Positions 51,256 to 57,090 of a stretch of DNA of 64,000 nt are shown piece after piece. The notes under the pieces were generated by a model that was not told where the DNA came from, did not search any database, and worked only from the letters and a program-made list of their open reading frames with translations. Source of the stretch: Escherichia coli (GTDB lineage: Bacteria; Pseudomonadota; Gammaproteobacteria; Enterobacterales; Enterobacteriaceae); the NCBI RefSeq assembly GCF_965641715.1, contig NZ_OZ282453.1; one strand, 5' to 3'. Each line of letters begins with the position of its first letter. Positions within the stretch are counted from its first letter, which is position 1. The position numbers and the translations under genes are program-made.

Positions 51256-53429
<2,174 letters not shown>

Positions 53430-53625
53430 TACGTATCCTTATACCTGAAATCTTCGCAAGTATGCCTGGCCGCGAGATTATGGCACACTTGTCCGGTTAA
53501 CTCTCGTCTCATACAGGTAACACAAACGTGAAAATCCTTGTTGATGAAAAAAATGATGACTTAATTTATTGATGTAAAAGGATTTATGTCAGCGCGTGTC
53601 CACGCAGTGACCACATTTTCGAGTT

Positions 53626-53669
53626 ACAGATAACACAAAGCCCGTTTTCACGGGCTTTGTGTTATCTGT
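53626..53669. repeat. perfect 19-bp inverted repeat hairpin with TTTTCA loop
   Basis: ACAGATAACACAAAGCCCG-TTTTCA-CGGGCTTTGTGTTATCTGT, 28 bp downstream of the stop of the 297-aa gene. Confidence 0.5.
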
Positions 53670-53696
53670 AATTGTGGCTAAGCCACATGATTTATA

Positions 53697-54590
53697 CTAT
53701 TTCCAGTTACAAGCAGATTGAAGCGGTTTTAGCGCGTTTGACAGGCCGTTTAAATTGAAAGTTGCACTTACGGGGCTCTCATTATAAGGCGTTATTTTTG
53801 TATACATTTTGCTTGAGTTGGCTAGTTTTCGGATGAAATCAATGTCATTACCTTTATAAAAAACAGCCTTTGTATCTGTAGATACTAGCCAGTTTCGCTC
53901 AACTGCTTTCTGTTTATCAAGGCGATAAAGCATGCTGGTTTGTTCAAGGCCTAAATATACATCCCAACTAAGAAATACTTCGGTTTTCTTTTCTCGGCAA
54001 GCTATAAACAGAGTAGGAGTAACCGCTTCTCCAAATGGAGTTCTGATATAATCATCACTTTCTAACGATAAAATTACATTTTTCGAATCATCAATTGGCG
54101 ATGTAGTAATGGATGTGTGCCATTTTCCTACATCTGTGGCTTTCTCTAATTTTGATTCAGCTTGAACGGCTTTATCCTGTGGGAATAGTTTATCGTAGCA
54201 GTTTAGTCTGGCTTCTTTATCATTTTCTGCACGACATTTAGATATCTCAGAAAGATTTGGTTGCTGAGCCTCTGTTGTTACTGGCTTTTCCGTTTTAGAT
54301 TTTGAGTTTACAGATGGAATAAATGTTGGAGAAAAGAAACGATCATAACAAGATAAACGTCTATCATCATCTTTCTCATCAGGGCATTGATCTCTGCTTT
54401 CGAATTTTTCAGCAACTTTCGTTCGAGTCGGTTGTATTGACTTATCGTAACAAGAAAGTCTGTCTTTATTATTTTCTATTGCTCGGCACTGGAGTACTGC
54501 ATTGAAGTTCTTATGTTCAGTTGCTGCGTGAACAGGCAGTACACTAATTGATAAAAATGATGCGCCTATAGAAAAAATTATATTTTTCAT
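53697..54590 (-). CDS. secreted protein with three Cys-containing repeats
   Basis: 297 aa; signal peptide MKNIIFSIGASFLSISVLPVHA; repeats RLSCYDK / RLSCYDR / RLNCYDK; AT-rich. Confidence 0.5.
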   Translation of the reverse strand: MKNIIFSIGASFLSISVLPVHAATEHKNFNAVLQCRAIENNKDRLSCYDKSIQPTRTKVAEKFESRDQCPDEKDDDRRLSCYDRFFSPTFIPSVNSKSKTEKPVTTEAQQPNLSEISKCRAENDKEARLNCYDKLFPQDKAVQAESKLEKATDVGKWHTSITTSPIDDSKNVILSLESDDYIRTPFGEAVTPTLFIACREKKTEVFLSWDVYLGLEQTSMLYRLDKQKAVERNWLVSTDTKAVFYKGNDIDFIRKLANSSKMYTKITPYNESPVSATFNLNGLSNALKPLQSACNWK

Positions 54591-54594
54591 TTTA

Positions 54595-54927
54595 TTATCC
54601 CTTTGGTTTAGTAAGAAATACTAAAATTCCGATAATGATATCGCCAATAACCCATAAGCTTCCAATGGTAATTAAACCTAAGCCTGTACCAATAACTGCA
54701 CCGGCTTTTTCAGCATCGGATGTGGCATTATTTATTATTTCACTAGTGCCACCTAGTCCAACTAAAAGCGTATAGATCATAAAAATATTAAATAATATAA
54801 AAACCCACTTAATGATCCGTCCAAAAAATGAACGCTTAAGTTTTTGTAGTTGTTTACCACAAGCAGGGCAATACAATGCTGAATCGCTCACCTCTTTCTG
54901 GCATTCAGGACATTTGATTAATGCCAT
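54595..54927 (-). CDS. zinc-ribbon membrane protein
   Basis: 110 aa; N-terminal CPEC...CPACG zinc ribbon then two hydrophobic helices; 4-bp gap to downstream gene. Confidence 0.5.
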   Translation of the reverse strand: MALIKCPECQKEVSDSALYCPACGKQLQKLKRSFFGRIIKWVFILFNIFMIYTLLVGLGGTSEIINNATSDAEKAGAVIGTGLGLITIGSLWVIGDIIIGILVFLTKPKG

Positions 54928-55189
54928 GTAATCCGCCTCCTTTGGATTAATACGAGTTGATGTTTGTTACAAAACATTTTGATTTTATCAGATTTTTTTT
55001 TATTGATAAGTGTCAATTGATTAGCTGGTATAGAGTGAGGCATATAGAAGGGCTGATCTGTATCAGTATGTGATGCAAAAATCCCACAGTTTCATGGAAT
55101 TTTTGCAGTTAGAGCTGTGAGATAGGGTGCCTTATCGACCTTACCCTGGCAACCGATTGACGGGGGATTGCTCCCCCGTCGCGGTTTCC

Positions 55190-55330
55190 TTACTGCTTAC
55201 ACTGTAAGAACGCCGCAAACTCCGCTCCCCAGAAGCTCATCCGTATTTCGCACAGCGAACCGTGAAGCATCCAGATGATGAGGATTGCCGTCACGCAGAA
55301 CGTGATGGCCGTAAGCGATTTTTGCGACAT
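55190..55330 (-). CDS. Hok/Gef-family-like small membrane toxin
   Basis: 46-aa ORF MSQKSLTAITFCVTAILIIWMLHGSLCEIRMSFWGAEFAAFLQCKQ; strong RBS AAGGAG; SLCEIR and AAF motifs resemble Hok. Confidence 0.45.
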   Translation of the reverse strand: MSQKSLTAITFCVTAILIIWMLHGSLCEIRMSFWGAEFAAFLQCKQ

Positions 55331-55520
55331 AGCGCTTGCTCCTTTTTCGGGGAGGCGCTAACCTATCACTTGCTTAGGGTAGACGGTTAGGGCCTCGGTT
55401 AAACAAAAGTGTTTTCCGGGGCCTTTCCACATCTGGCCTTCGGGTATTCCCTCCGACCATCAGCCGAAAGGCACCCGCGCGTAATCTATCGCTTTTTTGT
55501 TACTCCGACAATTCTGCCTG

Positions 55521-55781
55521 TTAATTCTGAGGTAAAGGCAAACTCATCTGATTGTTTCCCCTGTGTGAAGCTGGCAGCTCATGCCACGGGATACCTTCTG
55601 ATGAGTGAACGCCGGAGGCGTGTTTCGATGTGAATTTATGGAAAGCTTCCAGTGTTGAGAAGCATACGCCGCATTCCAGATTGTTACACTGGTAATACTT
55701 TTGCCGCACGGTGTTTGAATCATTTTCCGGACGACTGGTGCGGATACGGGCAGATGCGCCACAAAGCGGACAACGGAACAT
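55521..55781 (-). CDS. Ogr/Delta-family zinc-finger late transcription activator-like protein
   Basis: N-terminus MFRCPLCGASARIRTSR...YYQCNNLECGVCF (C2C2 finger); C-terminus diverges from P2 Ogr, may be degenerate. Confidence 0.5.
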   Translation of the reverse strand: MFRCPLCGASARIRTSRPENDSNTVRQKYYQCNNLECGVCFSTLEAFHKFTSKHASGVHSSEGIPWHELPASHRGNNQMSLPLPQN

Positions 55782-55823: not shown

Positions 55824-56933
55824 TCACTCTGTTTCTGCTATCCATTCCGGGATTTTTGCTTCAAGCTCAAGCTGCGTGGTAAAGCCACTGTTATCAATGG
55901 TGTGCTCGGCTTTCGCAATAATCCAGTCCTGATTATCAATCTCGCTTTTAAATCCTGTTACCGTGCCATGCATTTCGGGGTAGAGTTCTGCTCGTCCACG
56001 TGTCAGCGTGATGGAGAATGATGCGGCTCCGCGTTGTAGTTGTTGCCACTTTGCCGCCGCTGCGCGTCTTGCTGCCTGCTCGTTCTGATAAGTCTTGCGT
56101 AACACAAACACATTGCCTTCCGCGCCTTCCATATAATCACCTTCACGGCTGCTGCTTTTCTCTTTTTTCGGTTTTGGCGGTTTGCGGCGTTTCACGCTGA
56201 CTTTTTTCTTTTTCCCGTAATTAAGATCAAGCCAGTAAGCGCGTACCCCCGTATACGCTTCGCGGTCAGCAATGCGGAACTGATGGCGATCGCCACTGCT
56301 GCGTGTGATGGCGAACGATGGCAACGGCTGGCCCTGTGCGTTCACGCCACCGCCGGGCATGATGAATAACAGATTACCGCTTTTTACCGTGGTGATTGCG
56401 CCCAGCATTTCCGCCATGCGCGTAAGGAAGGACATGTCACTTTCTTCGGTCTGGTCGGCGTGGTCGATTTCGATATCCATCAGCATTTCGCTGATTTGCG
56501 GTTTCAGACCGTACCGATGAGCGATGGCGGATACCACACGCTCAACGGTCACATCATGCCAGGACACCTCACGTTTAACGTTAAATTCATCCCGAAAATC
56601 TGCGCTTCTGGCTGAAACAGTCAGCCTGTCCGGCGGTCCTTCGTGTGCGATTTCATCAACAATGTAAGAGCCTTTTTCTGCCAGCGGTTCGCCTTTCCAG
56701 CCAATGAGAACCGTCAGGCGCGCGCCCCGTGGCGGTAGCTGCAACTGACCATCCGCATCATCCAGCGTGATGGTTAGCTGATCTGCCTCAAATCCCCGGT
56801 TGTCGGTCAGCGACAGGCTCATCAGGCGCTCTGCCACTCCGGACAGCGTTTTACCCTCCGCGAGAATATCAAAATCCGGCATTTTTACGGGGTCTGTGCT
56901 CTGACTGAGCAATTGCATGGTGGTATCGGTCAT
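55824..56933 (-). CDS. P2-like tail protein D (late control gene D)
   Basis: 369 aa from ATG with RBS GGGAGGAAG; gpD-like sequence with lysine-rich linker. Confidence 0.7.
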   Translation of the reverse strand: MTDTTMQLLSQSTDPVKMPDFDILAEGKTLSGVAERLMSLSLTDNRGFEADQLTITLDDADGQLQLPPRGARLTVLIGWKGEPLAEKGSYIVDEIAHEGPPDRLTVSARSADFRDEFNVKREVSWHDVTVERVVSAIAHRYGLKPQISEMLMDIEIDHADQTEESDMSFLTRMAEMLGAITTVKSGNLLFIMPGGGVNAQGQPLPSFAITRSSGDRHQFRIADREAYTGVRAYWLDLNYGKKKKVSVKRRKPPKPKKEKSSSREGDYMEGAEGNVFVLRKTYQNEQAARRAAAAKWQQLQRGAASFSITLTRGRAELYPEMHGTVTGFKSEIDNQDWIIAKAEHTIDNSGFTTQLELEAKIPEWIAETE

Positions 56934-57090
56934 CTGCTTCCTCCCTGTGCGGCATGGTCGCATGTGCGTGTGGAGGGGGTTACTGCTTTTTGTTGTCGCC
57001 GTGGCGGGAGAACGGCGCAGGGGTGAGATTACGCGCGTGGTGGGTGATGATTGTTGCCGAATCATTTAACGGATACAAGGGGCTGAAGCT

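Follow-up and report, generated by a model that had tools for sequence, protein, structure and literature searches.

The AT-rich unit at the pdxB end of the prophage studied here is almost certainly a conserved phage cargo pair, which joins a zinc-ribbon inner-membrane protein to an exported protein of the VasI/TagO clade. Its most likely role would be that of an envelope module expressed in the lysogen and acting in exclusion or protection, and we offer the reading as a whole, cargo module and envelope role together, as a tentative best explanation that falls a little short of even confidence. The two genes lie on the minus strand of the 64-kb stretch of DNA analysed (the window), between ogr/hok and the attR of the prophage. 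The lengths of their products and the 4-bp gap between them are as given in an earlier note on the same DNA, and the AT-rich island reported there is equally evident, with a GC content of 0.34–0.37 over positions 53800–54999 against about 0.50–0.56 in flk and the phage tail genes. The features of the locus are as follows.

53531–53550, no strand assigned: attR core AAAATCCTTGTTGATGAAAA, 20 bp, within the first codons of pdxB
53596–53609, no strand assigned: GTGTCCACGCAGTG, possibly an arm-type integrase site within the attP arm (putative function)
53624–53671, no strand assigned: perfect 22-bp inverted repeat with a 4-nt loop, likely a bidirectional terminator closing the operon
53697–54590, minus strand: gene for the 297-aa protein
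54595–54927, minus strand: gene for the 110-aa protein
54936–54942, minus strand: Shine-Dalgarno sequence AAGGAGG, upstream of the 110-aa gene
54982–55009, minus strand: predicted sigma-70-like promoter TTATCA-16-TGaTAAAAT, then the conserved TTTTGTAACAAA dyad
55190–55330 (hok CDS) and 55317–55476 (sok-like RNA region), minus strand: hok/sok-type type I toxin-antitoxin
55521–55781, minus strand: ogr, late-gene activator, the final prophage backbone gene before the cargo slot

The operon is carried by a PhiSM-like prophage of the P2 type that has inserted within the first codons of pdxB; the remnant of this gene has its GTG start at 53528. The 20-bp att core is common to the integrase-side junction in strain RM10740 and to the empty site of K-12, where pdxB directly adjoins flk, as the earlier note said. 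It includes the 17-bp att ATCCTTGTTGATGAAAA published for PhiSM, and the PhiSM att site in pdxB is the same as the one used here (PMC6456863). Because the core stands on the flk side of the operon and, in RM10740, is found also at the end of this prophage that carries the integrase, the operon lies inside the prophage, and the suspicion that it was prophage cargo was well founded. The 14-mer GTGTCCACGCAGTG is repeated at the other prophage junction in locus L001, just downstream of int and before the att core.

The operon has the attributes of a phage moron as far as they can be read from the DNA, namely a predicted promoter, a terminator, deviant GC content and variable presence on a conserved backbone: among 5426 complete E. 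coli genomes, the D-ogr backbone segment was found in 1076 and the operon in 236. The −35 element (TTGTCA in most copies) and the −10 element are conserved across the E. coli, Klebsiella and Dickeya copies, all of which also have a terminator after ogr and ahead of the promoter elements; the TTTTGTAACAAA dyad is kept only in those of E. coli and Klebsiella. The hairpin said to follow the operon is indeed a perfect inverted repeat, although its arms measure 22 bp and not 19. It has an inner GC stem (GCCCG..CGGGC) followed by TTTGTGTT on both strands, and is conserved in an 89%-identical lineage (L029). The 101-nt stretch containing it (53600–53700) has a folding energy of −49.5 kcal/mol (z = −10 against shuffles), and in Rfam the hairpin matched nothing but a spurious miRNA model, far under its threshold.

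The hok/sok-type locus is neighbouring cargo that lies outside the two-gene operon and is missing from the Klebsiella and Dickeya copies. Its hok gene is annotated Hok/Gef in RefSeq, and the Rfam match of the sok-like region (45.7 bits) is under the gathering score of 59.

Neither protein had been placed in a family in the earlier note, and here that description no longer holds. The 297-aa protein is an exported, divergent VasI/TagO-family paralogue (Pfam PF11319) belonging to a phage-borne clade; it falls in PHROG 1848 and is annotated TagO in RefSeq. Residues 118–296 match the whole of PF11319 (model positions 1–184 of 184, i-E 1.7e-16), and two further matches cover model positions 1–26 and 1–36 at residues 34–59 and 68–103, respectively. 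Its divergence is evident from a score of 75.3 bits against NCBIfam TIGR03360, which fails the curated equivalog cut-off of 124.2; the same model gives 257.4 bits for TagO from the Sakai T6SS cluster and 56.9 for a 250-aa prophage variant. The protein shares 26% identity with TagO from the T6SS-2 cluster of E. coli.

The protein has one hydrophobic N-terminal stretch (residues 4–23), ending VHA/AT, and eight cysteines. The Cys motif noted earlier does occur in three copies, at residues 35, 69 and 119, but with the spacing C-x8-RL-x-CYD-[KR] and not C-x6, and Pfam independently aligns the beginning of the VasI model at three places (34–59, 68–103 and from 118). Among the 150 closest clusters at 50% identity, three copies are present only in the protein's own cluster and two copies in 2 clusters. 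The three C-x8-RL-x-CYD units appear to be disulfide-type helical hairpins on flexible linkers, and the protein has four Cys pairs in all. The C-terminal domain of about 150 aa, already recognised in the earlier note, is modelled as a beta-sandwich at residues ~150–297 (pLDDT >85) and appears to have an IalB fold. Its fold matches are to IalB, a flagellar T-ring component and uncharacterised phage proteins, none of which indicates an activity, and a search of solved structures with the family sequence profile gave chance-level matches only, such as TIM21. From the signal peptide and the four Cys pairs, the protein is predicted to be Sec-exported and periplasmic; together with the eight cysteines and the two-TM partner these features are consistent with the envelope location proposed earlier.

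The 110-aa protein (PHROG 6586) carries a CPEC...CPAC zinc ribbon with cysteines at 6, 9, 20 and 23 (Pfam Zn_Ribbon_1, PF13240, E 1.6e-07), of which C6, C20 and C23 are invariant and C9 nearly so among 27 homologues. Two hydrophobic stretches follow (~37–62 and ~75–108) with basic flanks on both sides, in agreement with the zinc ribbon and two TM helices first described. The protein is predicted to be a 2-TM hairpin of the inner membrane with both termini inside, a conserved periplasmic loop of ~15 aa and a cytoplasmic C4 ribbon. It resembles DrpB (YedR), a 2-TM divisome protein of E. coli, in size and TM-hairpin topology, and the two share the boundary motifs R-S-x-x-G-K and T-R-P-K/R and weak profile matches; unlike the 110-aa protein, however, DrpB lacks a zinc ribbon. 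Homology to DrpB was not accepted, the score being 20.8 bits (E 3.6e-4) against a cut-off of 50 (NF038392, PF28000), and hhalign of the family alignment with E. coli DrpB gave a probability of 18.9% (E 0.0012). A two-component spanin was likewise rejected: the 297-aa protein has a signal-peptidase-I-type site and no lipobox and the loop of the 110-aa protein is only ~15 aa long, so that neither resembles an o-spanin or an i-spanin.

The two genes travel together. Viral loci with the VasI-like gene numbered 71, of which 59 are P2-like prophage ends, and in 56 of these 59 IMG/VR loci the zinc-ribbon gene stands directly upstream. The pair occupies the same prophage position in P2-like phages of E. 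coli, Klebsiella and Dickeya, and the same gene order recurs in Dickeya and Klebsiella genomes and in published phages. PhiSM and Escherichia phages 500465-2 and PhiR44_2 carry it with 95–99% aa identity in both proteins, Xuanwuvirus P884B11 with 95%/90% and Klebsiella phage 3LV2017 with 64%/72%. The idea that both are core housekeeping genes never found in mobile contexts clearly does not hold. In an E. coli prophage at the tamB site, the neighbour of the VasI-like gene is instead a zinc-ribbon protein with a TM2 domain, of the same overall architecture; the two genes lie on opposite strands and so do not form an operon there. Izhakiella has the VasI-like, zinc-ribbon and zinc-ribbon-TM2 genes all together. 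The 4-bp coupling, the co-occurrence and this analogous replacement argue for a functional pair. The partners need not be obligate, since the zinc-ribbon gene also occurs as a solitary chromosomal gene (in Pantoea, as cueR-X-copA, and in Haemophilus) and the VasI-like gene lacks it in the remaining 3 of the 59 P2-like loci and at every distant locus.

Those distant loci belong to a large sister clade of VasI/TagO, carried on temperate phages and islands, and those of its loci that were tested have no T6SS genes close by. Searching with a profile of the prophage-borne clade recovers ~800 clusters (50% identity) at E ≤ 1e-30. The homologue lies directly after a cI/LexA-like repressor in Brucella phage BiPBO1, Klebsiella phage ST11-VIM1phi8.1 and two further loci (L083 and L109), and directly before an integrase in three others (L077, L080 and L081). 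At L110 it is flanked by an Old/AriA-like ATPase and PDC-S06, and at L112 an Old-like ATPase lies ~1.2 kb away and a type IV restriction enzyme ~340 bp away; such defence-island neighbours occur in only 2–3 of the 11 non-enteric loci sampled, a set that is small and was not drawn systematically. Three contexts of remote representatives were looked up, mostly short metagenomic contigs, and the informative one (L091) has a Rap1a-type T6SS immunity gene ~1 kb, or two genes, from the homologue and an integrase nearby.

How might such a pair act? We infer that a near-consensus sigma-70 promoter belonging to the operon would drive its transcription in the lysogen, without dependence on the late genes that Ogr controls, and that the two products would cooperate physically at the inner membrane and in the periplasm to bring about lysogenic conversion. 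Such a module would change the outcome of injection through the envelope, either by superinfection exclusion or by guarding the cell against attack by incoming phage, tailocins or the T6SS, and would not serve as part of the host's own T6SS. We regard this mechanism as a reasonable working model, to be held loosely. What favours the phage-exclusion or stress role suggested in the earlier note is circumstantial, namely the moron architecture, the homologues adjoining repressors or integrases and the few neighbours in defence islands. A scan of both proteins against PADLOC-DB v2 found no family at E up to 1, and our search of the literature on phage-borne VasI/TagO found no functional study of this protein or of a phage-borne homologue. 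The slot used by the operon is neither of the two major defence hotspots described for P2, the GpA-portal and the tail-gene Z/fun region (preprint 10.64898/2026.02.27.708500).

The reading implied by the RefSeq name is that a phage VasI/TagO homologue joins the T6SS of the host and boosts killing or virulence. The PhiSM paper suggests as much, listing ORF1 as 'T6SS VasI family protein - virulence' (PMC6456863), and the PF11319 and TIGR03360 homology is significant, with the same N-terminal Cys motif and the same C-terminal ...AC.W. V. cholerae VasI (VCA0118), moreover, is dispensable for Hcp/VgrG secretion and yet required to kill amoebae and E. coli (PMC3166118). Against this stand the sub-equivalog score, the low identity to the T6SS-2 TagO and the genomic setting: homologues of TssA/B/C/F/G/K/L/M, ClpV, Hcp and VgrG are absent from the window, no T6SS core gene lies within 8 kb of the VasI-like gene in 19 genome loci, and, to judge by appearance alone, none of the 71 viral loci resembles a T6SS cluster. 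The conserved zinc-ribbon membrane partner is also missing from the Sakai T6SS cluster annotation examined. E. coli K-12 is not known to have a functional T6SS, nor is Brucella known to have a T6SS. Homologues are nonetheless present in a Brucella phage, and PhiSM is described in its report as lysogenising K-12 (PMC6456863). We consider T6SS cargo improbable on these grounds. It is rather unlikely, too, that the two are general fitness genes, that is, independent and merely co-inherited envelope proteins which aid the lysogen outside any phage or T6SS conflict, for example in envelope-stress tolerance, in a DrpB-like role at division or the septum, or in the host-cell interaction proposed for IalB. 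Such morons would hardly call for the tight coupling, the near-constant co-occurrence or the exchange of one partner for a Zn-ribbon-TM2 protein; the similarity to DrpB is far under its cut-off, and members of the wider clade are found mainly in the lysogeny modules of prophages and in islands, not in core genomes.

A function in the phage life cycle, in which the pair modulates lysis or envelope disruption or stops progeny from re-adsorbing to and injecting into lysing cells, is very improbable. In an annotated relative the lysis region does consist of just a holin and a GH108 endolysin, and no spanin is annotated between these and the tail genes, and a pair divided between inner membrane and periplasm loosely recalls envelope-spanning lysis factors. 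The promoter, however, is of the sigma-70 −35/−10 type and not within the late operon, and the operon is missing from most prophages with the same D-ogr backbone and is thus not essential for the phage. Least credible of all is a decaying hitchhiker, a neutral remnant without current function. A frameshift interrupts the VasI-like gene in one E. coli lineage of ~91% identity, among whose members is a remnant carried on a plasmid, and dN/dS reaches 0.33–0.53 at the shortest distance. Both genes are nevertheless under purifying selection, with dN/dS of at most ~0.15 where dS can be estimated (~0.04–0.15 at larger distances), the reading frames are uninterrupted all the way from E. coli to Dickeya, and the promoter, the cysteines and the loop motifs are conserved.

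Our preferred reading, an envelope module of the lysogen, has a bolder form which we think unlikely as it stands: the zinc-ribbon and VasI-fold proteins would constitute an envelope-level protection system, borne by temperate phages, that blocks or senses entry by contractile injection devices, be these superinfecting myophages, tailocins or T6SS spikes, and VasI/TagO would be its domesticated relative. Were this true, the role of VasI/TagO within the T6SS would be envelope protection or guidance during firing and not that of an effector. The gene itself is already known, being annotated in RefSeq and listed among the PhiSM cargo in one paper; as far as its relevant passages go, that paper treats ORF1 only, as a 'T6SS VasI family protein (virulence)' by annotation, with no mention of the zinc-ribbon partner and no experiment on ORF1 (PMC6456863). 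The RefSeq name 'T6SS-associated protein TagO' is probably misleading for such prophage genes, as is the virulence label that goes back to it. VasI/TagO is among the few T6SS-associated proteins without an assigned molecular role, and proteins of the IalB fold are equally obscure. A positive exclusion or protection phenotype would open the VasI family to functional study for the first time. At 1.3 kb and with a predicted promoter of its own, the module is compact and self-contained; it occurs naturally in PhiSM, which lysogenises K-12, and is directly testable. If there were no phenotype, it would be ordinary and already annotated prophage cargo.

Among known systems, the closest is PhiSM of Citrobacter rodentium and E. 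coli, which is essentially the same element, with the same gene pair (ORF1 being the VasI-like gene) in the same position and the same att site (Magaziner et al. 2019, PMC6456863). The VasI/TagO proteins (V. cholerae VCA0118 and the E. coli T6SS-2 TagO) are likewise exported, with an N-terminal C-x8-RL-x-CYD motif, a beta-rich domain of ~150 aa ending in a conserved Cys-x-Trp and significant HMM matches, but the phage protein differs in its 26% identity, its 75 bits against a cut-off of 124, its triplicated Cys motif, its location at a prophage end, its zinc-ribbon membrane partner and the absence of T6SS genes nearby where tested. IalB (PF06776; PDB 3DTD) is 15–17% identical to the 297-aa protein and lacks the Cys-motif hairpins. 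P22 SieA, HK97 gp15 and T4 Imm and Sp are membrane superinfection-exclusion proteins. No sequence or fold relationship to these proteins was found, and the likeness is one of analogy: the pair, too, would be small, non-essential envelope cargo that the prophage expresses and that acts in the inner membrane or periplasm, and the distant VasI-like homologues placed after a repressor hold the same kind of position as superinfection-exclusion proteins do.

The two-gene operon is prophage cargo, occupying the slot between ogr and the flk-side prophage end (attR). Mapped against the K-12 empty site and the fully assembled, 99.9% identical homologous region of strain RM10740, the prophage sits inside the first codons of the pdxB coding sequence, 3 bp past the GTG start (window 53528-53552). 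Recurrence of the att core at the integrase junction puts the operon inside the prophage, as the earlier note had suggested, and its statement that K-12 has pdxB directly beside flk proved correct. The att-core mapping and the RM10740 and K-12 comparison place the features of the window in the sequence attR, hairpin, VasI-like gene, zinc-ribbon gene, hok/sok, ogr and D.

Features of the operon and its surroundings (window coordinates; genes of the operon from the ORF listing).
52434..53429, flk, one flank of the operon island
53531-53550, att core, 20 bp, AAAATCCTTGTTGATGAAAA, recurring at the integrase junction
53624-53671, perfect 22-bp inverted repeat with 4-nt loop, past the operon's end (repeat and folding analysis)
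53697..54590, minus strand, VasI-like gene, 297 aa
54595..54927, minus strand, zinc-ribbon membrane protein gene, 110 aa
54960-54977, TTTTGTAACAAA dyad about the predicted transcription start, kept in E. coli and Klebsiella copies
55009-54982, sigma-70-like promoter TTATCA-16-TGaTAAAAT, upstream of the zinc-ribbon gene's Shine-Dalgarno
55190-55476, minus strand, hok/sok-type type I toxin-antitoxin between ogr and the operon
55824-57065, minus strand, gpD ORF, 413 aa as listed
55824-62666, region with tail genes FI (sheath), FII (tube), E, T (tape measure) and a next ORF that is probably U

At the integrase junction of an annotated relative (L001 4480-4620), pdxB gains a TTG start and seven additional N-terminal codons from the phage, and then measures 1158 bp as against 1137 bp. 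The paper on PhiSM, a P2-like phage of Citrobacter rodentium and E. coli, gives a 17-bp att (ATCCTTGTTGATGAAAA) that is the att site of the window prophage, describes behaviour with which this new start agrees, and lists a VasI-family gene among the cargo (PMC6456863); in that sense the operon's VasI-family entity is already known. The deposited PhiSM genome encodes both operon proteins at 98.7% and 99.1% identity. The identity of the operon as PhiSM-type cargo, comprising an inner-membrane zinc-ribbon protein and an exported VasI/TagO paralogue, is secure.

Both ORFs, their coordinates and sizes and the 4-bp spacer are exactly as first described, and the operon island is indeed AT-rich (GC 0.34-0.37, versus about 0.50-0.55 in neighbouring flk and the P2-like ogr and D genes). 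The hairpin that follows is perfect, as claimed, but its stem is 22 bp rather than 19 bp; the 101-nt segment containing it (53600-53700) folds with a dG of -49.5 kcal/mol (z = -10). Alignment of the upstream regions of E. coli, Klebsiella and Dickeya copies revealed a terminator hairpin after ogr, a -35 (TTGTCA) and a -10 (GATAAAAT) common to all three genera, and a perfect AAGGAGG Shine-Dalgarno lies downstream of the promoter. The dyad may act as an operator or as part of the 5'-UTR. Judged by these signals, the operon is built like a moron, a self-contained unit independent of the Ogr-dependent late promoters, and would be active in the lysogen.

The 297-aa protein has a single N-terminal hydrophobic stretch (ending VHA|AT) and eight Cys residues. 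Its motif is present in three copies, as proposed, with a spacing of x8 and not x6 (C-x8-RL-x-CYD-[KR], at residues 35, 69 and 119). Residues 118-296 match PF11319 (E 1.7e-16), the upstream repeats account for two extra matches, each confined to the model's first 26-36 positions, and the C-terminal domain is PHROG 1848 (E 1.6e-37). These profile matches identify a VasI/TagO family member. The 110-aa protein is PHROG 6586 (E 1.7e-41), so that the statement that neither protein could be placed in a family no longer holds; both PHROGs are labelled 'unknown function'. Residues C119, R128, L129, C131, D133, C198 and C294 are invariant in the family alignment, a pattern compatible with two disulfides in each basic unit and with an oxidising, periplasmic compartment. 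The number of motif copies in family members ranges from one to three; of the 150 nearest 50%-identity clusters in a 1.84-billion-protein library, three copies occur only in the query's own cluster and two copies in two clusters.

The C4 zinc ribbon (Cys 6, 9, 20 and 23; Pfam Zn_Ribbon_1, E 1.6e-07) and two TM helices described earlier for the 110-aa protein were both recovered. The two hydrophobic stretches have basic flanks, implying a predicted N-in/C-in hairpin with a ~15-residue periplasmic loop. The family is narrow and strongly conserved (mean column identity 73%), including the loop SDAE(K/R)AGA and the WVIGDII segment of TM2. In Pantoea (L012-L014 6001-6333), a 70%-identical protein is encoded on the chromosome by a gene that stands by itself, flanked by cueR and copA; one strain has a P2-like prophage inserted directly downstream of it, with the integrase leading, a possible clue to how the gene came to be picked up by a phage.

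Searching IMG/VR with the family profile recovered 71 loci, 59 of which have gpD and ogr; the zinc-ribbon gene is the immediate upstream neighbour of the VasI-like gene in 56 of these 59. The same pair is found at other chromosomal integration sites in Dickeya oryzae and Klebsiella-type prophage loci (genome and metagenome assemblies), in Enterobacter mori, Raoultella and Klebsiella michiganensis genomes, and in published Klebsiella phages (64% and 72% identity). A tamB-site E. coli prophage carries a two-motif VasI-like variant beside an opposite-strand gene for a 98-aa protein in which two TM helices, of the TM2 family, come after an N-terminal zinc ribbon. Izhakiella has zinc-ribbon, VasI-like and TM2 genes all together. 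Across 5426 complete E. coli genomes the D-ogr segment (at least 80% coverage) is present in 1076 and the operon in 236, making the operon variable cargo on the prophage backbone. A 148-kb E. coli plasmid (NZ_CP025848.1 107100-109563) holds a prophage remnant with a D fragment, ogr, hok, the zinc-ribbon gene and a frameshifted VasI-like gene, adjoining a group II intron and an IS110 element.

Cargo at the D-ogr-att end varies, and this slot is not one of the two classical P2 hotspots. In related prophages it is occupied by other genes (L026 3315-4148, L018 2065-3567 and L003 8204-8962), which encode 277-aa and 500-aa proteins, neither of them matched in PADLOC or PHROG, as well as an alpha/beta-hydrolase (esterase/lipase PHROG 789). 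The hok/sok locus (Hok/Gef protein of 46 aa; sok-like RNA at 45.7 bits, below the Rfam gathering score of 59) is present in E. coli prophage copies and absent from Klebsiella and Dickeya copies. The tail genes FI to probable U lie on the strand opposite to D and ogr, with sheath and D divergent; in classical P2, FI-FII-E-T-U-D are co-directional. All the relatives compared (E. coli, Klebsiella and Dickeya; L001, L003, L006, L007) share this arrangement, which marks it as characteristic of the lineage rather than a product of assembly. The gpD ORF has an N-terminus about 30-45 aa longer than its homologues (369-384 aa) and probably starts at an internal ATG; RefSeq annotates only an 801-bp gpD fragment in RM10740. 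In the lysis region of the annotated relative (L001 22384-23815), only a holin and a GH108 endolysin precede the tail-completion genes, with no lysA/lysB/lysC (spanin) genes annotated.

Distant single-domain homologues occupy lysogeny-module or island positions. In Brucella phage BiPBO1 and Klebsiella phage ST11-VIM1phi8.1 the homologue directly follows a cI-like repressor; at two further loci (L083, L109) it follows a LexA/cI-like repressor, at three (L077, L080, L081) it directly precedes an integrase, and in a Pasteurella phage it lies within the tail module. Single-motif genes also have defence genes as neighbours. In a Nitrospirales MAG (L110 682-5944) one is flanked by an Old/AriA-like ATPase and PDC-S06 (849 bits); in Pseudomonas viridiflava (L112 4897-10908) an Old-like ATPase is ~1.2 kb away and a DUF262 type IV restriction enzyme ~340 bp away. 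The Sulfurovum homologue adjoins MazF, and in one metagenomic island a Rap1a-type T6SS immunity gene is found two genes (~1 kb) away from the homologue. These few cases, from an unsystematic sample, are suggestive of a conflict-related role; neither operon protein matched a PADLOC model.

We tentatively favour an envelope module that would protect the lysogen, through superinfection exclusion or a related role: expressed in the lysogen, it would guard against incoming injection. A true T6SS accessory or virulence role for the VasI-like gene, implied by its annotation and by the PhiSM paper (PMC6456863), is disfavoured. The protein scores 75.3 bits against the TIGR03360 equivalog cut-off of 124.2, whereas TagO of the E. 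coli O157 Sakai T6SS cluster reaches 257 bits and is only 26% identical to it. No T6SS core gene was found in the 64-kb window, nor within 8 kb of the homologue in any of 19 species-representative genomes spanning Enterobacterales to Pseudomonas, Shewanella, Sulfurovum and Nitrospirales, and the gene occurs in phages of hosts not known to have a T6SS.

A lytic-cycle role is disfavoured by protein topology, promoter type and dispensability. Neutral decay fits poorly with the purifying selection on both genes (dN/dS no higher than about 0.15 at unsaturated dS), although a frameshift interrupts the VasI-like gene of one E. coli lineage (about 91% identity). That lineage, together with zinc-ribbon genes standing alone in Pantoea and on the Haemophilus paracuniculus chromosome, argues against an obligate partnership; two independent fitness morons are a rival to the protective module.

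The TM hairpin of the 110-aa protein is weakly similar to that of the divisome protein DrpB, a relationship that is unproven. Three aspects of the VasI-like gene had no description in the literature searched: its membership of a large phage/island clade apart from T6SS-linked TagO, its coupling to a conserved zinc-ribbon 2-TM partner or architectural analogue, and the duplication or triplication of its Cys-motif hairpin specific to the enterobacterial P2-like lineage.
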